Source: a plasmid. From it: a stretch of 54,436 nt of DNA. The stretch lies in sequence record NZ_CP046475.1. One strand, given 5' to 3'. Below are positions 11,099 through 50,024 of this stretch, in pieces (position 1 is the first letter of the stretch; each line of letters opens with the position of its first letter). Under the pieces are notes generated by a model, which was not told the origin of the DNA, did no database searches, and saw nothing but the letters and a program-made list of their open reading frames with translations. Both the position numbers and the translations under genes were made by a program.

Positions 11099-11584
11099 CT
11101 AACCCTCCTGGTCAGCGTCGCCGCGGTGGTGCTCCCCATCCTGCGTGGGTCCTACCGACTCTTCATCGCTGCGGGCCAGCTTGTGCACGACGAACATGCC
11201 GACGGGCGGCGCGACCGTAGGCAGTCGCGGGTCGACGGAGTGGGCGCCTCTTCGAGGGTCGCACTGCCGAAACGGTGAGCTGGACTCTGAGGTCAGCGAC
11301 GCGATGGTGGGGTCGAGGAAGTCACGGATCCACGTCGCCGTCCCGGTCCCAGGATCGGTGCGCATGGCCTCGAAGGCGTCCCACAGCGCCTCGAGCCGCA
11401 GCACGGCCTCTTCGTGGTCCCACCACTTCGAGCACCACTTCTCCACGGGGTGCTGCAGGCAGACCTGCAGGAGGAAGTCCTCAACAAAGCTCGGCAATGA
11501 GGTGAACGCGAGGCCCGGCGAGGCCTCGCCATCCTCGTCCGTCGCGGGGTCGGCGATCTCCTGGGTCCAGTCGGTCTGGCTCAC
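11099..11584 (-). CDS. Hypothetical acidic protein, last gene of the T4SS operon
   Basis: ATGA overlap with the VirD4-like gene; 161 aa. Confidence 0.45.
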   Translation of the reverse strand: MSQTDWTQEIADPATDEDGEASPGLAFTSLPSFVEDFLLQVCLQHPVEKWCSKWWDHEEAVLRLEALWDAFEAMRTDPGTGTATWIRDFLDPTIASLTSESSSPFRQCDPRRGAHSVDPRLPTVAPPVGMFVVHKLARSDEESVGPTQDGEHHRGDADQEG

Positions 11585-13290
11585 GCGCTCTCCTGCCCGG
11601 TGTAGTAGGCGATGCCCTCACGGATGAGGTCGGCCTGCGGCAGCGACGACCAGTGCTCGAGCGCGACGAGCACAGCCGGCATCCCCGATGCCAGCGCCAC
11701 TGCTCGCCCCCGGGGCAGGGATGCGACCTCGTCGACGTCGAGGATCTTCTCGCGGCGCAGCTGTTGGGTCGTGGACCCGCCGGAGCGCATGCTCGTCGAG
11801 GCTGAGCGGGTGCGCACGTCGTGATCGCCGATGAGGCGGGAGATGGTGCCGGCGAACTCGTCGTCACCAATACCGGGGCCGATCCCGCGCAGGTTCGCCG
11901 CGTCCCACATCTGCTTCATGCCCTCACGACCCCACACCCGCACGCCCTGGGACCAGGACTGCAGGTAGGTGCACAGGATGATCCCGCGCGAGCCGTAGTG
12001 GGAGTAGAGGTCGGGCAGCTGGGGCCAGCGGCAGATGTTCGCCGCCTCGTCGAGCACGCACAGCAGCGGGCGAGCCAGGCGTCCGCCCTGCTCGATGCCG
12101 TACTCCTCGGCGGCGCGGGTGACGGCGACGGTCAGCGCCGCGGTGATCGCCCGGGCCGAGCCGGGTCCTTCCTTGCTGAGCAAGTGCAGGGTGTCGGTGG
12201 AGCGCACGAACCGCTCCGGGGAGAACTCAACGCGTCCCTCGCCGGGCGTGATCCACGGGATCAGGGAGGGGTTGCGAAGCCAGGACAGCAGGTTCTCGGC
12301 CGAGCCGTAGATGCCGTCACGCTGCTTGGGGGTCTTGGTGCGGGCGGACTCGACGTCGATGGAGGCGGAGTCCTCGCCGGCGGCGATGAGCAGGTCCTCG
12401 GGCTCCCGGTCGTCGGGCTGACGCACCCAGCGGTGCACGTCGAGCATGCTCCGCTCTCCCTTGGCAGCGGCCAGGAGCAGGGCGGCGACGAGGGTCTGAG
12501 CGGCGGTGTCGAAGTAGGCGTCGGTCTTGGCCGTGACGTCCCGGGTCGCGGCCGCGAACAGCGAGACGATCTCGTCGGCGCGGGTGGAGTCGGTGACGTA
12601 GGACAGCGGAGACCACCACCACGTCGGCTGGCCACCGGCCAGGCCCTGCGGGTCGTGGATGCGGACCAGCCCGACCTGGGAGCGGGGGCCGGCGGTCGCG
12701 TCGACGAGGTCGCGCTTGTTGCTCGTGGCGAGCACGGGCCCGCCGGTGGCCAGCACCTGCGGGATGCACAGGCACGAGGTCTTGCCCGCGCGCGGACCCA
12801 TGACCCACAGCTGGGTCCACTCCCACGACGTGCCCATCGGCGCGCGCCCGTTGACGGCCTTGCCGATGGGGACGCCGGCCCCGCACTCGGGGCTGACTCC
12901 CAGACGCCGCGCGTCGTTGCTCAGCCCGCTCATGGCGAGCTCGTGCACGTCCTTGGGGCGTGACATCGACCGGGCGAGGTGGTCTACCCGTGCGGCGGGG
13001 TCGTTGCCGCGGCGGCGGTAGATCGCGGCGGCAGCGACGGCCGTGGCGAGCAGGATCACCACAAACACCACAACGACGGCAGTGGCGCCGCCGGACCAGG
13101 AGGCGCGACCGGTGACGATCTGGCTGGCCCAGGCGAAGGGGTTGGCCGGCGGGTTCAGCCCCGCCAGGTGGGCTGCCGCCCATCCGGTCAGGACGAGCAC
13201 CACGATCAGCAGCAGCGAGCCGACCAGGACGTACAGGCCGGTGTCGCTGTTGGGGTCGCGCAGGCGCCCTGCGCGGCGCTGGGCGCTCAC
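11581..13290 (-). CDS. Type IV secretion coupling protein (VirD4/TraG/TraD family)
   Basis: Two N-terminal TM helices; Walker A GPRAGKTS; Walker B VLDEAAN. GTG start with GGGAG SD and a GTGA overlap with the upstream gene; the longest ORF extends to 13335. Confidence 0.85.
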   Translation of the reverse strand: MSAQRRAGRLRDPNSDTGLYVLVGSLLLIVVLVLTGWAAAHLAGLNPPANPFAWASQIVTGRASWSGGATAVVVVFVVILLATAVAAAAIYRRRGNDPAARVDHLARSMSRPKDVHELAMSGLSNDARRLGVSPECGAGVPIGKAVNGRAPMGTSWEWTQLWVMGPRAGKTSCLCIPQVLATGGPVLATSNKRDLVDATAGPRSQVGLVRIHDPQGLAGGQPTWWWSPLSYVTDSTRADEIVSLFAAATRDVTAKTDAYFDTAAQTLVAALLLAAAKGERSMLDVHRWVRQPDDREPEDLLIAAGEDSASIDVESARTKTPKQRDGIYGSAENLLSWLRNPSLIPWITPGEGRVEFSPERFVRSTDTLHLLSKEGPGSARAITAALTVAVTRAAEEYGIEQGGRLARPLLCVLDEAANICRWPQLPDLYSHYGSRGIILCTYLQSWSQGVRVWGREGMKQMWDAANLRGIGPGIGDDEFAGTISRLIGDHDVRTRSASTSMRSGGSTTQQLRREKILDVDEVASLPRGRAVALASGMPAVLVALEHWSSLPQADLIREGIAYYTGQESA

Positions 13291-14846
13291 GCGGACTCCC
13301 GCGCCTGGCGGCGTGACTCCTCGTAGGCCCCCCACCGTTCGTTGGTGTCGTTGACCGCCAGCTCGGAGGCGACCAGGTCGACCCGGAAGGGGATGCCGGG
13401 CCGCGAGCCGAGCTTGAGCAGGAACAGGCCCCGCCCGGGCGGGTCCTCGTCGTTGTCGCCCGACGCGGTGTGCATGTCCGACCAGGTCGTGAGCATCTGA
13501 CGCTCCTTCTCCGGCATCGCGAACACCTCAGAGAGGTTGCCCATCTCCTTGGGTGCGAGCCCGCCGAGGAAGACCATCTCTGAGCGCTCGACGAAGCCCC
13601 AGGCCTTCTCGGTGGCCTCCTCCGTCGCGAGCTTGAGGTCGCTCATGGTGTGGGTGCACATGATCTGCGGCAGCAGCAGCTGACGGTTCAGGCGAGTGAT
13701 CGCGTCGATCCGGTCGACCATCTGCAGGCTGGCGCGCAGCACGCGCCACAGCTCGTCCATGACGAGCACGTAGATCCGTTCGGGGCCAAGGCCGGCCTCG
13801 GCCTTGATCTTGGCTCCCTGCACCACGGCGGAGCCGTAGGACCAGCAGACGAGCTGCAGCGCGGCCTGCATGCGCAGGTCGTCCTCGTCCACGCCGGACA
13901 TGTCGAAGACCACGGGCCGGTCGAGCACCATCGGCACGCTCGTCTGCTGGGCGAAGGTGTCACCGAAAGGCCCCTTCGGGCCCAGACCCTGCAACGCGTC
14001 GAGCAGCCGCTCGACCCGCGCGTCGTAGCGGTCGGTGTCGCCGCGATCGCGCACGACCGCCCGCACCTCGTCGTTGCGCTCCTCGATCAGCACGCGCACG
14101 TCGTCGACGACGGGGGTGCTGCTCAGGTCGGGGTCGAGGACGGTCAGGGCGGCACGAAGGATGGTCAGCTCGTTGACGGTCAGCTCCGTGCCCAGGACGA
14201 GCTCGCACAGCCCGGCCAGCGTGTTCAGGCGCCGGCCCTGCAGCTGCGCCTGGACCTCCGCGGCCTTCTTCTCGTTCATCTCCCACAGGTGGGGCAGCAG
14301 AGACGCTCCCGGACCGGGGTCGAGGGGGTTGATGTTGGACCTGCCGCGACCGAGGCTGATGACGCCGGCCTCCCCACCGAGGGCCCGCACGAGCTTGACG
14401 TAGTCCGGCTTGAGGTCGGACAGGATCATCGGGATCACGCCCCACGCGGACAGCACGGTGAGCATCCGACGGATCAGCGTGGACTTGCCCAGCCCGGGAC
14501 GGCCGAGGATGAAGGCCGAGGGGTTGAGGATCAGCCCGAGCCGGAACCACGTCACCGGGTCGGCGCAGACGTCCATCATCATCATCTGGTGCCGCCCAAG
14601 CGGCACCCCCTTCGCCGGCAGGCTCGACCCGGCGGGGAAGGGCCACAGACCGCACACCTGGTTGCTCGTCGCCTCGAACTCCGGGGCGGACTCGACGATC
14701 GCGGCGTACCCGCCGCCGGGGACCTTCAAGCCCCGCCGGCCCGGACCGCCCTCGCTGGAGGTGGTGTCCATCCCGACCGCGCGCTTGAACTGCTCGAGCC
14801 GGCTGACCTGCTCGGCGGTGGGGGTGCTCGTGTTGGTGGTCATCAC
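13287..14846 (-). CDS. VirB4-like conjugative transfer ATPase (short actinobacterial type)
   Basis: Walker A GRPGLGKST; Walker-B-like VLVMDELW; ATGA overlap with the upstream gene. Confidence 0.8.
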   Translation of the reverse strand: MMTTNTSTPTAEQVSRLEQFKRAVGMDTTSSEGGPGRRGLKVPGGGYAAIVESAPEFEATSNQVCGLWPFPAGSSLPAKGVPLGRHQMMMMDVCADPVTWFRLGLILNPSAFILGRPGLGKSTLIRRMLTVLSAWGVIPMILSDLKPDYVKLVRALGGEAGVISLGRGRSNINPLDPGPGASLLPHLWEMNEKKAAEVQAQLQGRRLNTLAGLCELVLGTELTVNELTILRAALTVLDPDLSSTPVVDDVRVLIEERNDEVRAVVRDRGDTDRYDARVERLLDALQGLGPKGPFGDTFAQQTSVPMVLDRPVVFDMSGVDEDDLRMQAALQLVCWSYGSAVVQGAKIKAEAGLGPERIYVLVMDELWRVLRASLQMVDRIDAITRLNRQLLLPQIMCTHTMSDLKLATEEATEKAWGFVERSEMVFLGGLAPKEMGNLSEVFAMPEKERQMLTTWSDMHTASGDNDEDPPGRGLFLLKLGSRPGIPFRVDLVASELAVNDTNERWGAYEESRRQARESA

Positions 14847-28460: not shown

Positions 28461-29411
28461 ATGACCGCGACGAAGCGCACCAGCAAGGCCCGCACCGCCG
28501 AGAGCAAGCGCGAGGAGATGGAGGCTCTGCACCAGCAGCTCGCAGACGGCGTCGAGGCCCTGCGCGGCTCGCAGCAGTGGGCCCGCTACCTGGCGTTCTG
28601 CGCCTCCTTCCACCACTACTCCTTCTCCAACCTCGTCCTGATCTGGATGCAGCGCCCCGAGGCCACCCAGGTCGCCGGGTACCGCGCCTGGCAGGCGAAG
28701 GGGCGACAGGTCCGCAAGGGCGAGCGGGGCGTGCGCATCCTCGGCACCGGCACCGTCAAGGTCAGCGCCCAGGACGACGACGAGGCCAGCACGGGCGACA
28801 ACGCGGCCCAGGACGGCCCGCAGGCGCCCGCGGGCAAGCGTCGGGTCTTCTTCCCCGTCAGCGTCTTCGACATCGCCCAGACCGACGTCATGGAGGGCCA
28901 CGGGGACACCTCGACCGTTACCCACACCCTGGCCGGCGAGGACGTCCACGGCATCCTCGGCCGCGTCGTGGCATACCTGACGGCCACCGGGGTCGTCGTG
29001 GACTTCCAGGAGATCTCCAACGGCGCGAACGGCTACACCAGCCCCGCCGGCCAGGACGGCGAGCCGGTGCGAGTCGTCATCGAGGCACGCAACTCCCCCG
29101 CCCAGCAGGCCAAGACCGCACTGCACGAGGCCGCGCACATTGCGCTGGGCCACCTCGAGGACGGCGTCGAGGAGTACCTGAGCCACCGCGGCCGCTGCGA
29201 GGTCGAGGCCGAGTCTGTGGCCTACGTCCTGGCCGGTCTCCTCGGGCTCGACAGCAGCGCGTACAGCACCGGCTACGTCGCCACCTGGGCAGAGCGCGCC
29301 GACAGCGACGTCGTCAAGAGCACCGCCTCTCGCGTCCTGGCCGCGGTGCACACCCTCTCCCAGGCCCTCGACGGCGAGGACGAGCAGGACGAGCAGCACG
29401 CAGCCGCGTAG
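28461..29411 (+). CDS. ardC: ArdC-like antirestriction protein (ssDNA-binding N-domain + HExxH metalloprotease C-domain)
   Basis: QQWARYLAFCASFHHYSFSNLVLIWMQRPEATQVAGYRAWQAKGRQVRKGERGVRILG fits the ArdC-N/DUF1738 pattern; zincin motif HEAAHIALGH; GGAGG SD. Confidence 0.7.
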   Translation: MTATKRTSKARTAESKREEMEALHQQLADGVEALRGSQQWARYLAFCASFHHYSFSNLVLIWMQRPEATQVAGYRAWQAKGRQVRKGERGVRILGTGTVKVSAQDDDEASTGDNAAQDGPQAPAGKRRVFFPVSVFDIAQTDVMEGHGDTSTVTHTLAGEDVHGILGRVVAYLTATGVVVDFQEISNGANGYTSPAGQDGEPVRVVIEARNSPAQQAKTALHEAAHIALGHLEDGVEEYLSHRGRCEVEAESVAYVLAGLLGLDSSAYSTGYVATWAERADSDVVKSTASRVLAAVHTLSQALDGEDEQDEQHAAA

Positions 29412-33802: not shown

Positions 33803-35458
33803 ATGCTCTCCCTCAACACCCCTCGACCCGCGCGTCAGCGCGCGCAGCTCATCGCGTCCGACGTCTCTGTGATGCGCGGAGCCACCCCCGTCCTCAACCA
33901 CGTTGACCTCACGATCACGGCCACCTCGCGCGTAGCGATCGTCGGCGAGAACGGCCGGGGTAAGTCGACGCTCCTGCACGTCCTCACCGGCACTCTCACC
34001 CCGGACAGCGGAGTAGTGCAGCGACTCGGGACGCTCGGCATAGCCGAACAGGAAATGCCGAGCGGCGACGATAGAACCGTGGGCCAGGCGGTCGCGGAAG
34101 CGATCGCGCAGCCGCTGGCCGCCCTGGCGTCCCTCGATGCGGCCGCGGCGTCACTCTCGGCGGGCGTCACCGGAGCTGAGGAGCGATATGCCGCCGCTCT
34201 GGAGCACGCCGAAGTCCTAGATGCGTGGGACGCCGAACGGCGGGTGCAGATCGCGCTGGAAGCGCTCGACGCCGAAACCGATCCCGCCCGCCGACTGCAC
34301 GACCTCTCCGTCGGGCAGCGGTACCGCGTGCGCTTGGCGTGCCTGCTCGGCGCCGATGACGATTTCCTGTTGCTCGACGAGCCGACGAACCATCTCGATA
34401 GGAGCGGCCTCGAGTTCCTGACCGCGCAACTGCGGTCGCGAAACGGCGGCGTGATCGTCGTCACCCACGATCGCGCGCTGCTATCCGACGTCGCGGAGAC
34501 GATCGTCGACCTCGACCCAACCCCCGACGATCAGGTGCGCGTGTACGGCAACGGCTACGCCGGCTACCGGGAAGGCCGGCGCGCAGAGCGCGAACGGTGG
34601 GAGCAAGAATACGAGCGACAGCAGACCGAGCTCGCACGACTGCAGGACAGTCTCAGCTCAGCGCAGAATCGTCTCGTCTCGGGCTGGCGCCCAGAGAAGG
34701 GAACCAACAAGCACGGACGGGCGACGCGCGCGGGCGGGCTCGTGCAAAGCGTGCACCGCCGGCAGGAACAACTCGAAGCGCACGCGGTGACCGTCCCCGA
34801 GCCGCCGCAAGTGTTCCGCTTCCCAGACCTCGCGACCCGAACCGGAGCGGTGCTACTGAGTGTGGATCAGGTGACCGTGGCCGACAGGCTCACGCGCCCG
34901 GTGACGCTCTCGCTGGCGCACCGGGGGCGTCTGGTCGTGACCGGACCCAATGGGGCCGGGAAGTCCACTCTGTTGAGCGTTGCAGCGGGTGATCTGCACG
35001 CGGACACGGGCAGCGTTCGTCGTCCATCGAATGTCCGGCTTGCGTTCCTCCGCCAGGAGACCGCGCTGCCGCCGGATCGTCGCGCAAGCGCGGTCTACGC
35101 GGCCCACGTCGACACACTCGTGGCGGCCGGCACCGTCCACCCAAGCGAGGCCGTCGGGCTCTCGCAGCTCGGGCTCCTTCGCGCCCGCGAATCGAGCAAG
35201 CGGATAGGTGAGCTGTCGATGGGCCAGCAACGGCGCCTCGACCTGGCCCTGGTGCTCGCCACCAAGCCTCACGTGCTCCTGCTCGACGAACCGACCAACC
35301 ACCTATCGATCGCGCTCGTCGACGAACTGACCGACGCGCTCAACGCCACCCAAGCGGCTGTGATCGTATCCACCCACGACAGGCAGCTTCTTCGCGACGT
35401 CGACGGCTGGCCCTCGTTGCGACTGGCAGCACCGACCGAGAGCGAGGCGCTGGTATGA
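33803..35458 (+). CDS. ABC-F family double-ATPase (ARE/ribosomal-protection-type antibiotic resistance candidate)
   Basis: Two ABC cassettes without a TM domain: GENGRGKSTLLHVL, LSVGQRYRVRLA, LLLDEPTNHLD; GPNGAGKSTLL, LSMGQQRRLDLA, LLLDEPTNHLS; 551 aa. Confidence 0.85.
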   Translation: MLSLNTPRPARQRAQLIASDVSVMRGATPVLNHVDLTITATSRVAIVGENGRGKSTLLHVLTGTLTPDSGVVQRLGTLGIAEQEMPSGDDRTVGQAVAEAIAQPLAALASLDAAAASLSAGVTGAEERYAAALEHAEVLDAWDAERRVQIALEALDAETDPARRLHDLSVGQRYRVRLACLLGADDDFLLLDEPTNHLDRSGLEFLTAQLRSRNGGVIVVTHDRALLSDVAETIVDLDPTPDDQVRVYGNGYAGYREGRRAERERWEQEYERQQTELARLQDSLSSAQNRLVSGWRPEKGTNKHGRATRAGGLVQSVHRRQEQLEAHAVTVPEPPQVFRFPDLATRTGAVLLSVDQVTVADRLTRPVTLSLAHRGRLVVTGPNGAGKSTLLSVAAGDLHADTGSVRRPSNVRLAFLRQETALPPDRRASAVYAAHVDTLVAAGTVHPSEAVGLSQLGLLRARESSKRIGELSMGQQRRLDLALVLATKPHVLLLDEPTNHLSIALVDELTDALNATQAAVIVSTHDRQLLRDVDGWPSLRLAAPTESEALV

Positions 35459-36720
35459 ACCGCGAGACTCCCGACCGGCTGCGGGCGCTGCGCCCTCTTG
35501 CCACCCGCGACTATCGGCTGCTGTTCGCGGCGGTTGGTATCGAGGTCTTCGGCACCGGCATGTGGACCATCGTCATGGTGTTCCAGGTGCTCGCCCTCGA
35601 CGACAGTCCCCTTGCTCTTTCGGCCGTGGCTACCGGGCTCAGCCTCGGTCTCTTCGCTTTCTCGGTCCTCGGCGGGGTGGTAGCCGACCGCTTCTCCAAA
35701 CGACGGATCATCATCACCGTGCAGGGATGCACCGCGGCGGTCATGACCACCGTCGCTGTGCTGTCCCTCACAGGCGCAATCGAGCTGTGGCATGTCGGGC
35801 TCGCCTCGTTCGCGATGGGCGCGGGTAGCGCGTTCTTCTACCCCGCCTACAGCGCCTACCTCCCGCAAGTACTCCCACCCGAGCAACTACTCGCCGCGAA
35901 CGGGCTCGAAGGGGCTCTCAGGCCATCAATGGGCCAGGGCCTCGGCCCCGCCCTCGGAGGGATTGTCGTCGGGGCCTTCTTCCCCGCCGTTGGCGCGGTC
36001 ATCGTCGCCGCCTCCTACGCGGTCGCGTTCGTCATCACCCTGTTCCTCAGCCGCCGCGAGGACGCACCCGCTCCGGCGACGTCGGAAGAACGCACGAGCG
36101 TGTGGGGGGATCTCCGAGCTGGGGTCCGCTACGTCGCTCGCACCCGGTGGCTGCTGTGGACGCTGATCTTCGGATCATCGCTCGCGCTCATCATCCAGGG
36201 GCCAATCGAGGTGCTGCTGCCGTTCCTCACCCGCGACCGCTTCGACAACGCCGAAGCGACGTTCGGACTCTTGCTCGCCGCCTACGGAATCGGCGGCGCA
36301 ATCGGCTCGCTCATCGTGTCGTCTCTCAAACTGCCCCGGCGCTATCTCACGCTCATGATCGGCCTCTGGGGCGGCGGAACCCTCCCGCTCGTGCTGATCG
36401 GCCTCGTCAACGACCTGGCGGTGATGCTCATCACACTGTTCGCCGTTGGCGCGGCCACGGGAGCTGGTGTAGTCATCTGGGGCACGCTGCTTCAACGACT
36501 CGTGCCACCGGAGATGATTGGGCGCGTCGCCAGTCTCGACTTCTTCGTCTCGATCACCTTCATGCCCGTTTCGATCGCGATCGCCGGGCCGCTGTCGCTC
36601 GTCGTACCGATACCAGCCATCTTCATCGTGGCGGGCGTCGCGCCGACGCTGCTCGCTGTCGTCGCGCTTGTCGCAGGACGCATGCGGCATGTCGAAACGA
36701 GACAACCACTGGACACGTGA
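35455..36720 (+). CDS. MFS transporter (efflux, EntS/macrolide-exporter-like)
   Basis: ATGA overlap with the ABC-F gene; 12 predicted TM helices; 421 aa. Confidence 0.85.
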   Translation: MNRETPDRLRALRPLATRDYRLLFAAVGIEVFGTGMWTIVMVFQVLALDDSPLALSAVATGLSLGLFAFSVLGGVVADRFSKRRIIITVQGCTAAVMTTVAVLSLTGAIELWHVGLASFAMGAGSAFFYPAYSAYLPQVLPPEQLLAANGLEGALRPSMGQGLGPALGGIVVGAFFPAVGAVIVAASYAVAFVITLFLSRREDAPAPATSEERTSVWGDLRAGVRYVARTRWLLWTLIFGSSLALIIQGPIEVLLPFLTRDRFDNAEATFGLLLAAYGIGGAIGSLIVSSLKLPRRYLTLMIGLWGGGTLPLVLIGLVNDLAVMLITLFAVGAATGAGVVIWGTLLQRLVPPEMIGRVASLDFFVSITFMPVSIAIAGPLSLVVPIPAIFIVAGVAPTLLAVVALVAGRMRHVETRQPLDT

Positions 36721-40590: not shown

Positions 40591-41157
40591 TCATGACTCG
40601 TCGGGCGCCACGGTAAGCCCGACCTCGTAGATGAACTCCTTGCCGCCCCGTGAGGACCCGGTGACCTGCTTCTTGCGAAGAGCCCCGGCCTGGGCGAGTC
40701 GCTTCAGCCGGTTGTTGGCGTTCGAGGCAGAGAGGGACAGGCGTTGAGCGATGTCGCAGGCCTTGAACTGCCCGAGCTCATGCGCGATCTCGAAGGTCTG
40801 CGCCAACAGCGAATCGCCAATCAGGCTGAGCTCGCCGGACTCATCGACGATGACTGAAGGAATTTCTCTGCGTTCGACGCACACCTGCACCGAGTAGCGA
40901 TTGTCCGGGTTCAGGCCCGCGACTTTGACCGTGGTGCCCAGGGTGGAGAAGTCGTGGGAGCCTAGGAACTTCCCGAGGAACTCGTCGGTGAAGCTGATGT
41001 TCATCACCTGCACGTCGGTGAAGTCGATGATTAGGTCGAGATCTCGCCGCTCGTGGAGCAGGTCGTCTAGGCGAGCCCGGCCTTCTTGGCCCAGGGGCCG
41101 AGTGGCGGGATACCGGCTGAGCTGGTCGGCGACTCGAAACCTGGCGGGGACTGTCAT
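40591..41157 (-). CDS. STAS-like (DUF4325-type) domain protein with C-terminal winged HTH
   Basis: DLDLIIDFTDVQVMNISFTDEFLGKF (STAS-like); C-terminal ACDIAQRLSLSASNANNRLKRLAQAGAL; GGAGAA SD. The longest ORF extends to 41394. Confidence 0.5.
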   Translation of the reverse strand: MTVPARFRVADQLSRYPATRPLGQEGRARLDDLLHERRDLDLIIDFTDVQVMNISFTDEFLGKFLGSHDFSTLGTTVKVAGLNPDNRYSVQVCVERREIPSVIVDESGELSLIGDSLLAQTFEIAHELGQFKACDIAQRLSLSASNANNRLKRLAQAGALRKKQVTGSSRGGKEFIYEVGLTVAPDES

Positions 41158-41206
41158 GGCTTCTCCGGTTTCATTGTGGCGATTGAAGCACAGTCTGCCC
41201 GGGCGA

Positions 41207-42103
41207 TCACGCGCGATGGGTGAGCCACGCCCATGTGCCGCTGGTCTGGTCAGGGCGGTCGTAGGGGCGCTGGCGATGGGCGTGTGGCGTCGCGTGTACT
41301 CGTACCTCGCCCTTGCCGGACCTGATCTGGAAGTCCACCGTGCCGAACTTGCGGGTGTGGCGGATGGCGTCACTAAGGCCGTGGCCTCGCCCATTGTCGG
41401 CAGCGATTCCGCTGACGCCCGCGGTCATCGAGCGGGAGATGGCGTGCTGATCCTGGGTGAGATAGGAGTGCGTCGGGTTCTTGCGCAGATGCGCCAGGAT
41501 GCCGATACCGGTGTCACATACCGCGAACTCAAGCCGGGGTCGGTTGGTCGTGGCTCCGGAGTAGAGCTGGGCCGCCATGAAGGCCCCTCGTTCGCTATGG
41601 CCGTGCTCGGTGGCATTGCCCATGACTTCGCTGCAGGCTCGAAACACCGCAGCGCCGGCTGATCGGTTGCCTGGACCGTAGTACCCAGAGATCAGAGGCC
41701 CGAGGCGCTCGGCCAGGTCGTCGACGTTCGTGCGATTCAGGGCAGTGACTTCCAGCAAGGAGGAGGAGCGATCGGTGCGTGCGTCGGATGGGATGCGCCC
41801 CTCGATCTGAACCCGGGAAGACAGGTGTCGCAGGTGCTGCAGGACATCCATCCGCTGCAGGTACGACGCGGCGTGCTCATCGCGCGGCATCTTCAGGGTG
41901 ACTGACATGGCCGAGCTCGCGGCCCAGTGCGACCACGCCACGATGCCAGCCAGGTCCATCGGCGAAGCGAACTGCAGCGCTGTGGCGTCCACCGTCAAGA
42001 CCTCGGAGCCGGAGCCACCCAGGAAGGCGGCGTCAGCGAGCGGCGTACGTCCGGCCAGGATCAACTCCACCGGGGCAGTGTGCCTGGCGGGCGTCGTAGT
42101 CAT
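41207..42103 (-). CDS. Histidine-kinase-like ATPase (HATPase_c; anti-sigma-factor-type Ser kinase fold) with an unknown N-terminal domain
   Basis: GNATEHG; AVCDTGIGI; GRGHGL; 298 aa. Confidence 0.6.
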   Translation of the reverse strand: MTTTPARHTAPVELILAGRTPLADAAFLGGSGSEVLTVDATALQFASPMDLAGIVAWSHWAASSAMSVTLKMPRDEHAASYLQRMDVLQHLRHLSSRVQIEGRIPSDARTDRSSSLLEVTALNRTNVDDLAERLGPLISGYYGPGNRSAGAAVFRACSEVMGNATEHGHSERGAFMAAQLYSGATTNRPRLEFAVCDTGIGILAHLRKNPTHSYLTQDQHAISRSMTAGVSGIAADNGRGHGLSDAIRHTRKFGTVDFQIRSGKGEVRVHATPHAHRQRPYDRPDQTSGTWAWLTHRA

Positions 42104-42195
42104 GGGAGTTGACGCACCTAGAGCAGTCGACTACGGTTTCATTCAAGCCGATGAAAACACGGCGGAGGCCAGCACGACCTGCAGAGGAGTTGCAC

Positions 42196-42495
42196 ATGAA
42201 CACCCAGACCGGCAAGCCCACCGAACGCGACGTGGTCGTCCACGTCACCTTCGCGGCGGCCAACCAGCCCTACAACCAGAAGTTCCCGGCCTCAGCGACG
42301 CTGGCCGAGGTCCTGACCAGCGCGATGACCTTCTTCGGAATCCACACCGACGGCACCTCGCGCTACTTCCTCCTGGCCGCCGGTAGTGAGCAGGACCCCG
42401 GCACTACGGTCAGCGTCCTCGCCGAAGGCCAGCCCGGGCAGTCCCGATCGATCAAGCTCTCGTTGCGCACCGAGACCACGTCCGGAAGCCGCTGA
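42196..42495 (+). CDS. Putative ubiquitin-like (beta-grasp) protein, first gene of the Ubl-E2-JAB-E1 operon
   Basis: GAGGAG SD; 99 aa. The Ubl assignment rests on size and operon position, not on a motif. Confidence 0.4.
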   Translation: MNTQTGKPTERDVVVHVTFAAANQPYNQKFPASATLAEVLTSAMTFFGIHTDGTSRYFLLAAGSEQDPGTTVSVLAEGQPGQSRSIKLSLRTETTSGSR

Positions 42496-42498
42496 GCG

Positions 42499-42957
42499 GT
42501 GGACTTCGAGAGCCGCCTTCGCCTTGAGGCCGATGCAGCCGCGGTGGGTGCAGCCCTCGAGGCGAACGGCGGCCAGCTGGTCCACCGCAGAGGTGATGGT
42601 GAGCCCCCCGAGGTAGACCCCCCGGGGCTGTACTGGGCCTTCATCCAGCCGCAGAACCAGGACGCCGCCAGGTTCTTAGCTCGCCTGCAGTGGACTGTCT
42701 ACCCGGACCGACCCCCGTCTCTGCTCTTCGCGACGGACGTCGCCGGCCCCACCGATGTCCCTTCTGCGTGGCCTGCCGCCGCCGGGTACCGAGCGCCGAC
42801 GGACGTGTGCAAGCCCTTCACCGCCGAAGGTCAGGCGCTCCATACCGAATGGTCCAACGGGCCACATGCCTGGCGCAGCACCGGTAACCCGTTCCTGTAC
42901 GTCATCGAGACAGTTCAAAGCGACATCGACCGAGCACGAGGAGCCCGAGCAGGATGA
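42499..42957 (+). CDS. E2-like ubiquitin-conjugating enzyme homolog (candidate)
   Basis: 152 aa; 3-nt spacer after the Ubl gene; single conserved-looking Cys in TDVCKPFT. Confidence 0.4.
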   Translation: MDFESRLRLEADAAAVGAALEANGGQLVHRRGDGEPPEVDPPGLYWAFIQPQNQDAARFLARLQWTVYPDRPPSLLFATDVAGPTDVPSAWPAAAGYRAPTDVCKPFTAEGQALHTEWSNGPHAWRSTGNPFLYVIETVQSDIDRARGARAG

Positions 42958-43445
42958 CCCAGACCCATCTGCAGATCGGCAGCGACGCCGTCACGCGCCT
43001 CATCGCCGACGTGCAACATCATGGTCAGCTCGGAGTCGAGACCGGCGCCGTGCTCCTCAGTCCACGTGGCGAACCCACTGTTACTCACCTGGCGATCGCA
43101 GGAGATGTCGGAGTCGTTCGTCGGCGAGGGTTGTTCGTGCTTTCCGCAGCGGCGCTGGGGCCACTGTTCGACTTCGCCGAAGAGCGGGACCTTCAGCTGC
43201 GCGCGCAGGTGCACTCGCACCATGGCAGGGCATTTCTCTCGCCCACCGACGAAGCGGGCAACATCAGAATGACCGGCTTCGTCGCTGCTGTAATTCCGAC
43301 CTTCACCCACCCCTCAACAGACGTCGACCTTTGGGGTTGGTGGACCTTCGACGGATCCTGCTGGGTGCCCTCGCCGGCAGCCAGCCTTGGCGACCTGGAA
43401 ACCACGGTGCTGACCTTCGACGCGGAAGGGGTTCGCGATGAGTGA
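42954..43445 (+). CDS. JAB/MPN (JAMM) metalloprotease / deubiquitinase-like
   Basis: JAMM-like motif E...HSHHGRAFLSPTD (HxH...S..D); ATGA overlap with the E2-like gene. Confidence 0.6.
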   Translation: MTQTHLQIGSDAVTRLIADVQHHGQLGVETGAVLLSPRGEPTVTHLAIAGDVGVVRRRGLFVLSAAALGPLFDFAEERDLQLRAQVHSHHGRAFLSPTDEAGNIRMTGFVAAVIPTFTHPSTDVDLWGWWTFDGSCWVPSPAASLGDLETTVLTFDAEGVRDE

Positions 43446-44937
43446 CCTCATCGTGCCGCCCGCCCATGAGCGGGGGGCCGACTACAGCCGAACCTTGCGG
43501 CTTGCCGCAGCCAACGCCGCCCACGACGAGATTGCCCTCAAGTCACGCCTTGAAGGCAGCGTTGTCCGTGTCAGCGCAGACCCCACAGCGCCTGCCGCGC
43601 TGATCACGCTCCAGGTGCTCGTCGCGAATCTCCGCCGCCTCCCGGTCCAGCTCCATCTGGACCCTCGCGGTGGGGATAAAGAGATCCCGTCTCGCTGGCT
43701 GAGTGACCTGGAGCAGCTCGCCGCTGGGATTGACCCCGAGCGGCCGCTTGTCGTGACCAGCCGCGTGGGGGATGGGGTACATGTCCATGTCGGCACCAGC
43801 AGCACAACCGCACTGGCCTCTGGCGTTGCCGATGGGCACGGCACCCGTATACGTCCTCGCGGCACTGGTTTCTCGACTCTGGCTGCTGCCGGCACAGGGC
43901 TGGGCGGTGTCCTGACGGCCTCGTTGCTCACTGCCGAGGTGTTCAAGGTGGTCGTAGGTGTTTTGCCAAACCGCCGCGGCGACCTTCGCCCCATCGACTT
44001 CTGCCCTGTCACCCTGGACGCGCCGCAGCGCGAAGTGGCGCTACTGGGGACCCTGCACGACACCACCCTGGTCGGGTGCGGCGCCATCGGGACAGCAATC
44101 GCCCTAATTCTGCGAGAACTCACAGCAGACGGCACGCTGACGGTGGTCGACCCTCAGATCTTCGAAACACCGAACGTGACCACCTACAGTCTCGGCGATC
44201 TCGACGATGCGGCCAGCCAGGTCCGCAAGGTCGACCTCATTGAGCGCGAGCTGCGCACCATGGACGTCTCTCCTCATGAAGGTTTTGCCCGCGACTACAT
44301 CGACGCCATCGAGAACGGTCAGTTCACGATGCCGCAGATCGTCCTCGGCGCCCTCGACAGCATCGAGGCGCGCCACGACATCGCAGCGATCCACGCTCAG
44401 CACGTCCTCGACGGCAGCACAGGAGGACCGGCCGGGACCATGCTGAGCCTGTCCGAAGCGACCTGGGCCGGGCCATGCCTACGCTGCTATTTCCCAGCCC
44501 GAACCTCGGAAGCGCCGACAACAGACGAGCTGCTGGCCCAACGCACCGGCCTCTCGCTTGCCCGGATTTCCCGCGGTCAGGACCCTTTGACCCCGCAAGA
44601 GCTCGACGAACTGGGTCAGCTGAGCGAGAAGGATCGCGCGATCCTTGAGACGCAGGTCGGCAAAGCAGTCTGCGGGCTTGGTAAGGCGCTGGGGCTAGTA
44701 GGACAGGCAGACGACTTCAACCCCTCTGCCGCCTTCGTCGCCCAACAAGCCGCCGCCCTGGTGGTTGGATCTCTGATCCGCGGTGGGCTTGGCGCACAAG
44801 CACGCTCCGTGCAGTACGACGCACTCTTCGGCCCTCGTGACGAGATGACCATGGCTCGGTCACCGCAGCCTGATTGTCGATGCCAAACACAGCGCTCCCT
44901 CCACGAGCAGGTCCGCAGCTACCGGGGGGCGCAGTAG
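43438..44937 (+). CDS. E1-like (ThiF/MoeB/UBA-family) activating enzyme
   Basis: Rossmann motif LVGCGAIGTAIALIL; 8-nt overlap with the JAB gene; 499 aa. Confidence 0.7.
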   Translation: MSDLIVPPAHERGADYSRTLRLAAANAAHDEIALKSRLEGSVVRVSADPTAPAALITLQVLVANLRRLPVQLHLDPRGGDKEIPSRWLSDLEQLAAGIDPERPLVVTSRVGDGVHVHVGTSSTTALASGVADGHGTRIRPRGTGFSTLAAAGTGLGGVLTASLLTAEVFKVVVGVLPNRRGDLRPIDFCPVTLDAPQREVALLGTLHDTTLVGCGAIGTAIALILRELTADGTLTVVDPQIFETPNVTTYSLGDLDDAASQVRKVDLIERELRTMDVSPHEGFARDYIDAIENGQFTMPQIVLGALDSIEARHDIAAIHAQHVLDGSTGGPAGTMLSLSEATWAGPCLRCYFPARTSEAPTTDELLAQRTGLSLARISRGQDPLTPQELDELGQLSEKDRAILETQVGKAVCGLGKALGLVGQADDFNPSAAFVAQQAAALVVGSLIRGGLGAQARSVQYDALFGPRDEMTMARSPQPDCRCQTQRSLHEQVRSYRGAQ

Positions 44938-45321
44938 TCCGACCACCTCGTGCACGGTCCCCGCAACCCGAGCCCGTCGCTGGAGATCGGTGAGCGCGGG
45001 GACCCTCCAACCCGCCCCCGGTGATCTGCCCATGGGGCGGTGTGACGCCGAAGTGAGGAGCGATTTCTTGGGTACTCGGCGACGGGGGCACGATCGACCC
45101 CGTACATCCGGCCCACGCGAAGACGAATTTTCGAAGGAACGCGCGAACCCCCTCCTTGCTGATGGGATGTCACTCCTTCGCTGTCTGCGCCGGGCCAGGC
45201 GATGTTGCCGCAGGTACGGGTTTGGGAAGTTTTCCGTCGAACCCTTCTCGGAGGTCGAGCGTGACCCCTACCTTCTGTCTTGCACACCGCGAATAGCGCG
45301 GTGCAGTCAGGGGAGTTCAAT

Positions 45322-46665
45322 ATGCGATCGTCGCGTCGATTGAGATTGGCTGTGGGCTTGTCCGCCGCCTTCGCCACACTGGCCGCGGGAGCGGCCAGTG
45401 CCGTCGATACCAACCCGAAGCCGCCGATGACGATGGAGCTCGCTCGCGAGATCACCCATTCGACTCGCCCTCTAACCACCGAGGAGGTTGATCGCTTCGA
45501 GGAGGCTCTCGCTGTCAGGTGGGGTGCTGCTCGACCTGATCAGGTCGCGGAACGTCTCAAGGAGACTCTGCGAGCTCTGGGTCGTGACGGTGGCGCGACG
45601 TGGATCTCCGAGGAGGAGACCCTCCACGTGTATGTGTCTGGCCCAGACCTTGGCAGGGTTGTCGCTGTCGACAAGATAAAGACCTTGGTGACGGAGATCC
45701 TTCGTGGATCAAACGTCAAGGTGCAGGTGCACGCTGGAGGCGTTCGGTCCGAGGAGCAGCTGGTCTCGACGATGGACGCCGTGGCCGACACCAAGAGCTA
45801 CGACTCCACCGGGACGGTGCAGATCCGAGCCCAGCGCATCGACTACTCCACCGGGACGGTCGAGGTCGATGCGACCAGCCAGGCCGCCGCCGACATCGTC
45901 GAGAAGCAGTTCGGCGACGCCGTGAAGGTCCAGGTCAAGGCCCCCTACACCCAAGACGAGCTCGACGAGATGTTCGAGGCTGAGGGGCGCCGTAACGACT
46001 CGCCGAGTAACGGGTGGAACGGCGGCACCGCGATGTGCACCGCGACGACGGGGGACTGCATCTTCGATGCCGAGGCTGGAACTGCTGGAGATTCAGCGGC
46101 CTGCACCACAGGTCTGAAGTGGGTTCTCGCTGGTCAGGTGCGCTTGGCAACTGCTGGTCATTGCTTCGCCGAGCCTACGATCAACACGTTCTATCGATAC
46201 GAGTTTCCTCGGTATGGAATTGCTACCCGGGCCGGAACCTTCTGGGCATTCAACACGAATGTCGACGGCGCTCTGATCGACCCGCCGAATGGATACTCTG
46301 TTCGCAACGAATTCTGGATCGGCGGTCGGTACGGCAGTGATAGCCGTGAGATCACCGCATGGGACGACACGTTGAGCGTGGGTCAGCCCCTGCTGGTCTC
46401 GGGCGCCAACAGTGGTGTGCACACCGGCGAGGTCCGCATCGTCTTCGACCGCGAGTGCGGAACCCCGCTGACCACCACCAACATCGACTCGACGACGGGC
46501 GGGGACTCGGGCGCCACCGTCGCACAGCCGAACAGCGCCTCGCCGGAGAGTGGAGACTACGTCGCGCTAGGGGTTCACTCCTGCCGAGTCAAGGGTGGCT
46601 TCTCTCGGTTCTCGCGCGCCGCCACGATCGCCAACGAGCTTGGTGGGTACCCCGCTACCTACTAG
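45322..46665 (+). CDS. Secreted S1-family serine protease (alpha-lytic/streptogrisin-like) with N-terminal prodomain
   Basis: Signal peptide; catalytic triad contexts TAGHCF, DGALID, GDSGA; GGGGAG SD. The longest ORF starts at 45280. Confidence 0.85.
   Translation: MRSSRRLRLAVGLSAAFATLAAGAASAVDTNPKPPMTMELAREITHSTRPLTTEEVDRFEEALAVRWGAARPDQVAERLKETLRALGRDGGATWISEEETLHVYVSGPDLGRVVAVDKIKTLVTEILRGSNVKVQVHAGGVRSEEQLVSTMDAVADTKSYDSTGTVQIRAQRIDYSTGTVEVDATSQAAADIVEKQFGDAVKVQVKAPYTQDELDEMFEAEGRRNDSPSNGWNGGTAMCTATTGDCIFDAEAGTAGDSAACTTGLKWVLAGQVRLATAGHCFAEPTINTFYRYEFPRYGIATRAGTFWAFNTNVDGALIDPPNGYSVRNEFWIGGRYGSDSREITAWDDTLSVGQPLLVSGANSGVHTGEVRIVFDRECGTPLTTTNIDSTTGGDSGATVAQPNSASPESGDYVALGVHSCRVKGGFSRFSRAATIANELGGYPATY
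45727..45978. repeat. Inverted-repeat copy A (~250 bp, 1 mismatch) within the protease prodomain-coding region
   Basis: Reverse complement matches 47608..47856. The antisense ORFs 45709..45954(-) and 47629..47835(+) translate identically over 68 aa. Confidence 0.75.
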
Positions 46666-46733: not shown

Positions 46734-47540
46734 TCAGGTGTAGATCGCGAGGTAGTCGACGATGAGGAGGGGCCCCTCGAGGAACAGCTCCTTATCGGCA
46801 TCGTTCGCAGGCCCCTCCCGTTCCTGGCGACGCCGCTCCGCGCGGGAGTTGACGTTCATACCTGGCAGTGACAGGAGCGGGTAGAAGCTACCCGCTGGGA
46901 TGGTCCTCTTGACCTTGGCGACGATCCTCGCGTAGCCATCGAACGACGCGCCCGGGGCGATCCACTGGTTGTTGAGTGAACCGACGATCTTCCAGTCGCT
47001 CCCATTCATGTCTTCACTGACCACTACCAACGCCACGTCGACGTTCTCGAGAAAACCGGCGACCGCGCTCATCTCTGCCGCGTCGGGCAGCCCCTCCATG
47101 TCGAGACCCAACGCTCGCGCCTGCGGCATGAGCGTCTCCATCGTCTTCAGCGCCTCCTTGAACTCGCCTTGGTTGGCGACCGGGGCGATGCTCTCTGGCA
47201 CGTAGACCTCGCACTCCCAGTCGATGAGGGTTCCTGTGCCGGTGCTGGGGAACTCGGTGTCAGGCTCGAGGACCTCACGCCACTCGTGCTCTTCGGGCTT
47301 AGCGCGGCCTGCAGCGATGAGCCGCTGCAGGCGTGAAGCGTCGTGATCATCGACGTTGAGGGTGGACTCGTCCTCGGAGTCCGAGCGCGCCTCTAGCCGC
47401 GCGCCCGGGAACCCCGCGGCCCCTCCGAACCCGTGCCCCCCCTTCGATCGAGCGGAGCCGGATCGTCGTAGTCCCCCTTCCGCACTGGCGATGTAGCTCG
47501 CCAGTGCGTCGCCGTCGAGGTACAGGGCGTTGATCAGCAT
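46734..47540 (-). CDS. Hypothetical protein, third gene of the sigma/anti-sigma operon
   Basis: 268-aa ORF 25 bp downstream of the anti-sigma gene; no recognised motif. Confidence 0.45.
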   Translation of the reverse strand: MLINALYLDGDALASYIASAEGGLRRSGSARSKGGHGFGGAAGFPGARLEARSDSEDESTLNVDDHDASRLQRLIAAGRAKPEEHEWREVLEPDTEFPSTGTGTLIDWECEVYVPESIAPVANQGEFKEALKTMETLMPQARALGLDMEGLPDAAEMSAVAGFLENVDVALVVVSEDMNGSDWKIVGSLNNQWIAPGASFDGYARIVAKVKRTIPAGSFYPLLSLPGMNVNSRAERRRQEREGPANDADKELFLEGPLLIVDYLAIYT

Positions 47541-47565: not shown

Positions 47566-48330
47566 TCAGTTGTCGGCGGGCGCGGGGGAGGGGACGTTCT
47601 TCATTCCGAACATCTCGTCGAGCTCGTCTTGGGTGTAGGGGGCCTTGACCTGGACCTTCACGGCGTCGCCGAACTGCTTCTCGACGATGTCGGCGGCGGC
47701 CTGGCTGGTCGCATCGACCTCGACCGTCCCGGTGGAGTAGTCGATGCGCTGGGCTCGGATCTGCACCGTCCCGGTGGAGTCGTAGCTCTTGGTGTCGGCC
47801 ACGGCGTCCATCGTCGAGACCAGCTGCTCCTCTGACCGAACGCCTCCAGCGTGCACTGCGACGGTGAAGTCGACGGTGCCGGTCAGCTCATCACCCACGG
47901 CCTGGGTCTTCTCAACGGCAGCGTTCTTGCCGTCTGCGGGCCCGGAGACGTAGATGTTGAGCGTCTTCTTCTCCGAGATCCACGTCGCGCCGCCGTTGCG
48001 GCCCTGGGCGCCGAGGATCTCGGCCAGCCGGTCTGCGACCTGGTCGGGGCGGGGATTCGCGGGAAGGTCGGTGCCGGCGGACTGAATGGACGACGACGAG
48101 CTCGAGGCGACGTCGATGACCGCGGGCTCATCGCCTCCACGGACGGTCAGGCCCACCCCGCCAGCGACGATCGCGACCCCCAGTACTGCGCCCAGCGCCG
48201 TGTGACGGCGCCGCCGTTGGCGGCTGCTGGCGGCCGCGATGAACGAGTCCAGCGGTGGCACGTCCTGACGTGCGCGGTCGGCTTCGTCATTGATGAGGGT
48301 GCGGACGGCATCGAGATCGGGGCTGCTCAT
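47566..48330 (-). CDS. Anti-sigma factor-like membrane protein whose extracytoplasmic domain duplicates the protease prodomain segment
   Basis: ATGA overlap with the ECF sigma gene; N-terminal cytoplasmic region, one TM (LGAVLGVAIVAGGVGLTV), then VHAGGVRSEEQLVSTMDAVADTKSYDSTGTVQIRAQRIDYSTGTVEVDATSQAAADIVEKQFGDAVKVQVKAPYTQDELDEMF, identical to the protease segment. Confidence 0.6.
   Translation of the reverse strand: MSSPDLDAVRTLINDEADRARQDVPPLDSFIAAASSRQRRRRHTALGAVLGVAIVAGGVGLTVRGGDEPAVIDVASSSSSSIQSAGTDLPANPRPDQVADRLAEILGAQGRNGGATWISEKKTLNIYVSGPADGKNAAVEKTQAVGDELTGTVDFTVAVHAGGVRSEEQLVSTMDAVADTKSYDSTGTVQIRAQRIDYSTGTVEVDATSQAAADIVEKQFGDAVKVQVKAPYTQDELDEMFGMKNVPSPAPADN
47608..47856. repeat. Inverted-repeat copy B
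   Basis: See copy A; the single mismatch is ctcctcTgacc versus ctcctcGgacc. Confidence 0.75.
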
Positions 48331-49094: not shown

Positions 49095-50024
49095 ATGCCC
49101 TTCCACACCACCGCCGTCCAGGTGATGCTCGCCTCTCCCGGGGACACCTCTAAGCAGCGTGCAGAGATCCTGACCGCAGTTGCGCGGTGGAACGGCCGCC
49201 ATGCGCAGTTGCGCGGGTTCGTCATCACTCCTTGGCTCTACGAACTGCACGCCACGCCGTTGTACGGCCAGCGTGCACAAACCATCGTCAACGAGCAGGG
49301 CGTCGACAAGTCCGACGTCGTCATCGTCATCTTCGGCGACAAGCTGGGCACACCGACCGGGGTCGATCTCTCGGGCACGGTCGAGGAGATGAGGCGCGCG
49401 CACGAGCTGGGCAAGCGTGTGCACGTCTACTTCTCATCCGCTGACGTGCCCCAGGACAAGATCACTGACGCCGTCGCACTCAGCGAGTTCAAGGCCAAGT
49501 TCGAAGAAGCCCAGCTCGGCTACTACGAGACCTACACCGACCCCAGGGACCTCTCGTTGAAGGTGATCGAGGCACTCGAGACCGACCTGACTGTCTTCGG
49601 GGAGGCCCCTGCGCCCAAGACCCCTGCTGGGGTCGTCCTCCGGGTCACCTTCGAGGCGAGAACACCGCCCGAGCAGCAGCCCGCCCTCATTCCGTCGACC
49701 TACAGCACCGAAACCTCAAGGTCGCTGCATCAAATGGCTGCCAGAAGAGCTGCCGAGCCCGTCAGGCAGCTGCTGATCAGCAATACCGGCGAAGTTGACG
49801 CCGAGAAGGTGCAAGTCAAGCTCGTTCCTCCACCCGGTGTCTCCGTATCGGTGAGGCACACCGACGACGACGGGTGGACTTCTCCGCGCGATCTCACAGT
49901 CGACTCAGTGTTCGCCCTGGAGTTGGTCCGCAGGCGAACTAGGCCAACGAACGTCGACGTGATGACGCGGTGGGTCGAGGCAGACAAGATGCAGGAGAAG
50001 ACTTTCACCACCCACGTGTACTGA
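49095..50024 (+). CDS. DUF4062-like N-terminal domain protein (possible defence-associated)
   Basis: VMLASPGDTSKQRAEI...DVVIVIFGDKLGTPTGVDLSGTVEEMRRAHELGKRVHVYF fits the DUF4062 pattern (..FG.RYG...S.TE.E...A...g.pv.vF). Confidence 0.45.
   Translation: MPFHTTAVQVMLASPGDTSKQRAEILTAVARWNGRHAQLRGFVITPWLYELHATPLYGQRAQTIVNEQGVDKSDVVIVIFGDKLGTPTGVDLSGTVEEMRRAHELGKRVHVYFSSADVPQDKITDAVALSEFKAKFEEAQLGYYETYTDPRDLSLKVIEALETDLTVFGEAPAPKTPAGVVLRVTFEARTPPEQQPALIPSTYSTETSRSLHQMAARRAAEPVRQLLISNTGEVDAEKVQVKLVPPPGVSVSVRHTDDDGWTSPRDLTVDSVFALELVRRRTRPTNVDVMTRWVEADKMQEKTFTTHVY

Follow-up and report, generated by a model that had tools for sequence, protein, structure and literature searches.

A probable, divergent Bil-type ubiquitin-like conjugation operon on a conjugative plasmid of Janibacter melonis

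We analyzed a 54,436-nucleotide stretch of plasmid DNA (sequence record NZ_CP046475.1), referred to below as the window. According to its list of open reading frames (ORFs), four intact genes follow each other on the plus strand from position 42196 to position 44937. In order, they encode a ubiquitin-like protein (Ubl), an E2-like protein, a JAB peptidase and an E1-like protein, and they are labeled here after the genes of the bacterial ISG15-like (Bil) systems.

42196-42495, plus strand: Ubl-like ORF (bilA-like), 99 amino acids, ATG start, followed by a 3-nt gap
42499-42957, plus strand: E2-like ORF (bilB-like), 152 amino acids, GTG start, followed by a 4-nt overlap
42954-43445, plus strand: JAB ORF (bilC-like), 163 amino acids, ATG start, followed by an 8-nt overlap
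43438-44937, plus strand: E1 ORF (bilD-like), 499 amino acids, ATG start, the last of the four

An independent gene caller predicted the same four genes on the source contig, and the exact coordinates reproduced the tight junctions described in an earlier note on this DNA. The motifs quoted in that note were also all found, namely, TDVCKPF, HSHHGRAFLSPTD, LVGCGAIGTAIALIL and the Ubl C terminus TETTSGSR. A longer Ubl starting at a TTG codon at position 42109 was considered and rejected. The ATG at 42196 was preferred because the extension was not conserved among homologues and because a Shine-Dalgarno-like motif, AGAGGAG, lies 6 nt 5' of this ATG.

The E2 family alignment was then used to scan one genome per species, and 41 related loci were recovered; family counts given below for 42 members add the window. 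The order Ubl-E2-JAB-E1 was found in 41/41 loci. JAB and E1 homologues followed directly 3' of the E2 gene, always in this order, and an ORF of about 90 to 100 amino acids lay directly 5' of it in every locus. The 4-nt overlap between the E2 and JAB genes was kept in 37 of the 41 loci. Such a four-gene arrangement is far beyond chance.

The product of 42196-42495, for which the earlier note had proposed structure prediction, was modeled with AlphaFold2 (AF2) from a 54-sequence alignment. The model was a confident beta-grasp (predicted local distance difference test [pLDDT] score, 81.5). It had a single beta-grasp domain within the 99 residues, with its elements in the order beta-beta-alpha-beta-beta-short helix-beta, and it ended in a flexible tail. 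When the model was compared with the PDB using Foldseek, 360 matches were obtained at an E value of ≤1e-3. The best match was Caldiarchaeum ubiquitin (E value, 8e-6; template modeling [TM] score, 0.70), and the other leading matches were SUMO, Atg8/GABARAP, Rad60-SLD2 and ubiquitin. These overlap strongly with the structural neighbors reported for BilA of Ensifer aridi, which are ubiquitin, SUMO, Caldiarchaeum ubiquitin and Rad60. The BilA model of PADLOC matched the Ubl with an E value of 8.2e-6 over positions 78 to 142 of the 162-position profile, corresponding to its second Ubl domain. A phmmer search of PDB sequences with the Ubl gave nothing meaningful. Four distant Ubl homologues (P0134, P0135, P0156 and P0192) bear the precomputed Pfam mark PF27055.

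The earlier note had also suggested that the Ubl, which does not end in glycine, might need processing by the JAB protein, and the family data agreed with this suggestion. Gly97 was invariant in a 28-sequence alignment of the lineage Ubls. The C terminus was located exactly at the Gly97 equivalent in 32 of the 42 loci, while the remaining 10 had one or two unconserved residues after it (SR, AS or S). Database homologues added the tails NA, DA and ND, and in a wider protein set, 45 of 54 Ubls ended at the glycine and the others carried one to four variable residues. The conserved C terminus of the lineage is a single glycine, [Q/N/S]-G. Given the invariant Gly97 and the variable tails, ...TETTSG-SR in the window reads as a pro-form with a two-residue tail, in which Gly97 is the predicted conjugation residue and Ser98-Arg99 the predicted removable pro-peptide tail. 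This pattern matches that reported for both Bil types. In type I BilA, the terminal glycine is fully conserved and overhangs of 2 to 9 amino acids are found in 12 homologues; in type II BilA, BilC removes the residues, nine at most, that come after the conserved glycine.

The E2-like protein has a sole cysteine, C104, located in TDVCKPF. Within the family, C104, E110 and H115 were invariant (C-x5-E-x4-H), as part of the invariant motif D-[IV]-C-K-P-F-T-A-E-G-x3-H. The window protein also has YPDRPPS, an instance of the UBC hallmark YP-x-RPPS kept throughout the family, and WPA at the place where eukaryotic E2s have HPN. A UBC-fold E2 bearing a putative catalytic cysteine and a conserved histidine C-terminal to it is what is found in BilB. 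The family likewise agrees with what Iyer et al. (2006) described for bacterial "6d" E2-like proteins, which are without the classical histidine and have an absolutely conserved histidine C-terminal to the cysteine.

No match was obtained when Pfam, NCBIfam and PADLOC were searched directly with the window E2. Similarly, nothing was found among PDB sequences, either with the E2 in phmmer or with the E2 family profile. More than 100 homologues of the E2 were found, none of which has a name or a Pfam domain. When 1.84 billion representatives were searched with the family profile, only 100 proteins were retrieved (about 100 clusters at 50% identity). The PADLOC BilB model was reached by 5 of 54 family members (best E value, 0.0016), and Pfam PF24702 was reached by 4 of 54 (best E value, 8e-4). 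The ten weakest profile matches were scanned, and nine of them matched PADLOC BilB only or best, seven of these weakest matches with values of 1e-15 to 1e-6. Finally, hhalign aligned the E2 family with the PADLOC-BilB-positive set at 99.4% probability (E value, 3.5e-21), with the cysteine, T-x-E-G and the histidine in register. On this profile evidence, the window E2 is homologous to BilB. One of the weak profile matches, P0293 (311 amino acids), is a natural BilB-BilC fusion (PADLOC BilB, 1.3e-10 at residues 33 to 145; BilC, 4.6e-26 at residues 152 to 305), an architecture not seen in the literature on Bil consulted for comparison.

The JAMM motif is intact in the JAB protein (E29, H87-x-H89 in the form H87-S-H89, S96 and D99), and its residues were ≥95% conserved among the 42 family members. 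PADLOC BilC matched this protein with an E value of 1.2e-12. In phmmer, it matched E. aridi BilC (PDB 8tyx_B) at 1.5e-6, with HSHxGRAxxSxTD aligned and the spacing of the JAMM residues identical in the two proteins.

The E1 consists of an N-terminal inactive-adenylation-like domain (residues ~1 to 200) and a ThiF adenylation domain (Pfam ThiF, 2.5e-13, residues 210 to 482) with the nucleotide loop GCGAIG. PADLOC BilD matched it at 4.6e-8. The E1 family aligned with E. aridi BilD in hhalign (probability, 96.8%; E value, 2.6e-10) over 328 columns, and since these include the N-terminal ~200 residues, the architecture of one inactive and one active adenylation domain is common to both. By analogy with the spacing in ThiF/MoeB, C347xxC350 ... 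C480xC482 is a predicted zinc site. A helical insert between the two cysteine pairs ends in the conserved AVC412GLG, and C412 is the best candidate for the catalytic cysteine.

Could the E1 instead belong to a sulfur-carrier system, in which a ThiS/MoaD-like protein and a ThiF/MoeB-type adenylyltransferase serve the biosynthesis of a cofactor or thio-compound? The earlier note had set such an activator, lying beside biosynthetic genes, against its own proposal. The E1 does match Pfam ThiF and, weakly, NCBIfam TIGR02356 (ThiF; 28.7 bits, with a cutoff of 275), and NCBIfam gave no family for the Ubl, E2 and JAB proteins. However, a UBC-fold E2 with an invariant cysteine and a JAMM peptidase were translationally coupled to the E1 in 41/41 loci, the Ubl model was closest to ubiquitin, SUMO and Atg8, and the operon had no biosynthetic neighbors. 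In addition, the lineage Ubls end in a single glycine and not in the Gly-Gly at which ThiS and MoaD end. The sulfur-carrier reading is disfavored by the coupled E2 and JAB genes, the single glycine and the neighborhood, and we regard it as very improbable.

The domain assignments made earlier for the four proteins thus held, through the beta-grasp model, the profile link between E2 and BilB, the JAMM motif and the ThiF domain. The assignment to Bil was borne out by profile searches, directly for BilA, BilC and BilD and transitively for BilB. Both Bil types are Ubl-E2-JAB-E1 operons of four separate genes. From its sequence features, the machinery in the window is very probably a complete, E3-less Bil-type (BilABCD) Ubl conjugation system.

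The earlier note had also applied the label "type II Bub" (Bub stands for bacterial ubiquitination-like), which had to be dropped. Type I Bub operons encode Ubl-E2 and JAB-E1 fusions plus DUF6527, and type II Bub operons encode an E2-E1 fusion (BubBD) plus DUF6527, usually without a JAB protein (10.1101/2024.11.21.623966). What a type II Bub operon has in common with the window is general content (Ubl, E2 and E1), and both Bub types share the Ubl/E1/E2 conjugation chemistry and Ubls with a terminal glycine. In contrast, Bub enzymes are fused and depend on the DUF6527 serine protease, and the window has neither feature. The JAB gene stands between separate E2 and E1 genes, there is no Ubl-E2 or JAB-E1 fusion, and DUF6527 (BubE) was found neither in the four proteins, nor in ten neighbors, nor among the precomputed Pfam marks of the locus. 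The locus is therefore assigned to Bil and not to Bub, and the profile matches to BilA, BilC, BilD and, transitively, BilB point the same way. A type II Bub operon is refuted by the operon architecture and is highly unlikely.

Another module with related enzymes is the Cap2/Cap3 accessory module of the cyclic-oligonucleotide-based antiphage signaling system (CBASS), which would conjugate a cyclase rather than a Ubl. Cap2 models did match, weakly and in the nucleotide loop, and BilC and BilD outscored the Cap2/Cap3 models. The E1 and E2 are unfused, the operon has a dedicated Ubl whose terminal glycine is conserved, and no cGAS/DncV-like nucleotidyltransferase (CD-NTase) or effector family was found among the flanking genes scanned, the other neighbors being known by precomputed Pfam marks only. 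With separate E1 and E2 genes, a dedicated Ubl and no CD-NTase in the flanking genes scanned, this reading was rejected as extremely unlikely.

Within Bil, the window system was compared with both characterized types. Type I Bil, from Collimonas sp. OK412 (Hor, Wolf and Sorek, 10.1101/2023.09.04.556158), also has four separate genes in the same order without an E3, a Ubl with a conserved terminal glycine and sometimes a short overhang, and a compact E2 of ~150 to 160 amino acids with a catalytic cysteine and a conserved downstream histidine, and its BilA, BilC and BilD hidden Markov models (HMMs) match the window proteins. However, the Ubl of type I is ISG15-like and contains a tandem of two beta-grasp domains, whereas the window Ubl has one. 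At 24 to 46 bits, the HMM scores of the window proteins are low, and the window E2 escapes the BilB model. Type I hosts are Proteobacteria, whereas the window lineage is found in Actinomycetota, Solirubrobacterales and relatives.

Type II Bil comprises the CEHH/6C operons, represented by E. aridi TW10 (Chambers et al., 10.1101/2023.09.26.559546; PDB 8tyx, 8tyz and 8tz0) and found mostly in Rhizobiaceae. It has the same gene order, a single beta-grasp Ubl of ~98 amino acids, a conserved glycine followed by a short nonconserved tail (removed by the JAB protein in type II), a long E1 with an N-terminal inactive-adenylation-like domain and, frequently, CapH/CapP regulators. The E2s differ. That of type II, ~200 amino acids in length, contains a long loop as well as the CEHH motif (C138, E144, H146 and H151), whereas the window E2 has 152 amino acids, with C104, E110 (+6) and H115 (+11) and no histidine at +8. 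In hhalign, the window E2 family and E. aridi BilB shared 46 columns, limited to the YxxRPPSVxF core (E value, 5e-4; probability, 30%). Furthermore, the window E1 is without the insertion that bears the E. aridi catalytic C417.

An uncharacterized kind of operon, seen in a groundwater metagenome (locus L046), shares the gene order Ubl, E2, JAB and E1; it encodes a single-domain Ubl and an E2 annotated in Pfam as "BilB-like" (PF24702). Its Ubl has 97 amino acids and ends in ...TKG, its E1 has 416 amino acids compared with 499 in the window, and this E1 bears the precomputed mark PF27312 ("BilD_N"). All four window family profiles matched the L046 proteins gene for gene (hhalign probability, 93.6 to 97.1%), at a pairwise identity of only 22 to 27% between L046 and window proteins. 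The L046 proteins scored far better with the PADLOC Bil models than the window proteins did, as the E values show.

Window: BilA, 8e-6; BilB, none; BilC, 1e-12; BilD, 5e-8
E. aridi: BilA, none; BilB, none; BilC, not scanned; BilD, 2e-14
L046: BilA, 4e-9; BilB, 3e-15; BilC, 2e-26; BilD, 4e-26

By these scores, the window lineage and type II are about equally distant from the PADLOC Bil models. The two-domain BilA profile suggests that these models are type I-like, and the PADLOC BilB model also missed BilB of E. aridi, a characterized type II protein. Judged on its proteins, the window system is a Bil mosaic, in which the single-domain Ubl and the long E1 are type II-like and the compact E2 is type I-like. 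It brings no new component or architecture; it is a divergent Bil member and arguably a third Bil type.

Several observations weigh against the Bil assignment. The window E2 matched neither PADLOC BilB (PDLC03845) nor Pfam PF24702 (DUF7665/BilB-like) at an E value of ≤1, and its homology to BilB is transitive. The Ubl family did not align significantly with E. aridi BilA in hhalign (E value, 0.02), and phmmer with the E1 gave no PDB match at an E value of ≤0.01. Concerning E1 catalysis, C412 is not aligned with E. aridi C417, which lies within a 36-residue insertion absent from the family; C189 is also invariant and is a second possibility for the catalytic cysteine; and the arginine of the canonical ThiF-type SNLxRQ is replaced in the window E1 (PNVTTY).

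The lineage is rare and mainly actinomycete. Most of the 41 loci came from Actinomycetota (Streptomyces, Kitasatospora, Micromonospora, Nocardioides, Oryzobacter, Lentzea, Actinomadura and Frankiaceae), and the remaining ones came from Solirubrobacterales, one Dormibacterota and one Thermoanaerobaculia. A tblastn search of a phage collection with the E2 and a scan of IMG/VR with the E2 family found none. A relative with 74% identity (L050) lies on a conjugative element, flanked by a TrwC relaxase, an ArdC-primase and a type IV coupling protein (T4CP), and relaxases adjoin L014-L019. On plasmid pDAETH-1 of Deinococcus aetherius (L048, 78048-80853), the same four-gene layout encodes proteins of 104, 145, 179 and 505 amino acids and lies next to genes for an XRE-family regulator of 398 amino acids and for a HipA kinase. 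RefSeq annotates the three small genes as "hypothetical protein", and their PADLOC Bil matches were weak. A few loci were irregular. In L031 (6438-8432), the reading frames of JAB and E1 are merged, the Ubl, E2 and E1 genes are broken into pieces in L041, and the E1 is truncated to 391 amino acids in L008. These seemingly degraded or fused genes could be pseudogenes or assembly errors.

From conserved residues and the characterized Bil systems, we infer the following mechanism. The JAB protein would trim Ser98-Arg99 from the 99-residue pro-Ubl, exposing Gly97. The E1 would adenylate Gly97 and take the Ubl as a thioester on a cysteine, with C412 as the best candidate. The Ubl would then pass to Cys104 of the E2, beside the invariant His115, and the E2, with no E3 involved, would attach it directly to lysines of the target. 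Conjugates could also be undone by the JAB protein. If type I Bil is a guide, a structural protein of the phage, for instance the central tail fiber, would be modified, so that the virions released would be defective.

The genes divergently upstream of the operon are candidates for its control.

40591-41157, minus strand: protein with a STAS-like DUF4325 and a MarR-type winged helix-turn-helix (wHTH), 188 amino acids, possible regulator (DUF4325, 2.1e-6; MarR, 8.7e-5)
41207-42103, minus strand: GHKL/SpoIIAB-like ATPase, 298 amino acids, possible regulator (weak HATPase_c match, 6.5e-3)
42104-42195, no strand: divergent intergenic region of 92 bp, putative promoter/operator of the operon and the upstream pair, judged from position only

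A scan for sigma-70 consensus promoters and terminators found no promoter in 42104-42195. The only inverted repeat there is 8 nt long, with arms at 42061-42068 (within the upstream gene) and 42105-42112. Two relatives (L005 and L006) keep both genes beside the operon, with 64% identity for the GHKL protein and 68% for the STAS-wHTH protein, and the pair occurs in relatives of the window from Oryzobacter and Nocardioides. PADLOC gave no matches for the pair, and a tblastn search of plasmids with the GHKL gene found none. Elsewhere in the family, the gene found divergently upstream of the Ubl gene encodes an XRE-type HTH protein in 21 of the 41 loci, and in 18 of the 41 it is accompanied by an adjoining IrrE/ImmA-type Peptidase_M78 gene; such XRE-HTH and Peptidase_M78 pairs are also upstream in L046 and L050. 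By sequence, these pairs are CapH/CapP-like regulators. A CapH/CapP pair has been reported beside 15% of the type II Bil systems and beside other immune systems, where it responds to DNA damage. Expression of the operon is probably stress gated. Position and domain content suggest that the GHKL and STAS-wHTH genes of the window represent an exchange of the regulatory module, and they may form a partner-switch regulator of a defense operon.

In databases, the protein identical to the Ubl is a hypothetical protein marked "(plasmid) [Janibacter melonis]". The conjugation-related genes of the window are as follows.

11581-13335: TraG/TraD coupling protein (T4CP)
13287-14846: VirB4-like ATPase
28461-29411: ArdC anti-restriction protein (ArdC-M78)

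A relaxase is predicted on a sister contig. Given these three genes and the relaxase, the replicon is a conjugative plasmid, as the earlier note had thought. The operon lies in a stretch with a GC content of 0.63 to 0.67, compared with 0.70 to 0.74 in the transfer region, as would be expected for cargo. A megablast search of PLSDB with 41000-46000 gave no match. The claim that the operon sits next to other defense-like genes was only weakly borne out. One neighbor, 49095-50024 (plus strand; 309 amino acids with an N-terminal DUF4062), matched the PADLOC candidate defense family PDC-S60 at 3.9e-15, over just the first ~165 of 906 profile positions. The other neighbors are regulators, a protease-like gene, a DUF6414 gene and an extracytoplasmic function (ECF) sigma factor.

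An antiphage role of the operon is moderately likely, by analogy with the characterized Bil systems: both types are antiviral, and type I has a defined tail-fiber target in the phage. Two points tell against it. Conjugation, targets and defense are all inferred in the present case, and a classical defense island was not seen nearby, the one candidate being the weak PDC-S60-like gene. The same machinery could instead have a natural role other than phage defense, either in the biology of plasmids and integrative and conjugative elements (entry exclusion, control of conjugation or competition between elements) or in a response to DNA damage or stress in which host proteins are modified. Conjugative elements carry the system repeatedly (the window plasmid, L050 and the loci with adjoining relaxases), the family was absent from the phage collections searched, its neighbors in the window are mostly regulators and not known defense genes, and the paper on Bub and Bil Ubls itself calls for the exploration of roles beyond antiphage immunity (10.1101/2024.11.21.623966). 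Such a role nevertheless appears unlikely in view of the antiviral activity of both characterized Bil types and the defined tail-fiber target of type I. CapH/CapP-like regulators are also typical of immune operons. Moreover, defense systems are commonly cargo of conjugative elements.

We tentatively consider it possible, with some doubt, that the lineage constitutes a third, mainly actinomycete Bil type that has spread on conjugative elements and in which, within a Janibacter/Oryzobacter/Nocardioides subclade, a partner-switch regulator not described before has taken the place of CapH/CapP. Eukaryotic antiviral tagging by ubiquitin and ISG15 has its clearest bacterial counterparts in Bil systems, which have so far been studied only in Proteobacteria. 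The present lineage would extend them to Actinomycetota, Solirubrobacterales, Dormibacterota and Deinococcus. The BilB models tested underdetect this lineage, and standard annotation models mostly miss it. As a compact system with a single-domain Ubl, it would be useful for asking what is tagged during actinophage infection, and the presence of two different regulatory modules before the same machinery offers a natural comparison. The concept of how Bil-type systems work is unchanged by the finding.

Some further features of the window were observed. A perfect 250-nt inverted repeat has its arms at 45727-45976 and 47607-47856, flanking the DUF6414 gene (46734-47540, minus strand). The first arm lies within the 5' part of a serine-protease-like ORF (45280-46665, plus strand), and the second lies within the 3' part of another ORF (47566-48330, minus strand), so that both ORF products contain one identical segment of ~85 amino acids. 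The sister plasmid contig (L002; 52.5 kb) has other gene content at the repeat region and is without DUF6414, which suggests a repeat-mediated rearrangement. At 3429-7880 (minus strand), a 1,483-amino-acid RHS-repeat protein with DUF6531 is encoded, likely a polymorphic toxin. Finally, at 33803-36720 (plus strand), an ABC-F-type double ABC ATPase (551 amino acids) overlaps a major facilitator superfamily (MFS) transporter (421 amino acids). This pair resembles an antibiotic-resistance-type pair, and its many PADLOC matches are generic ABC/AAA ones.

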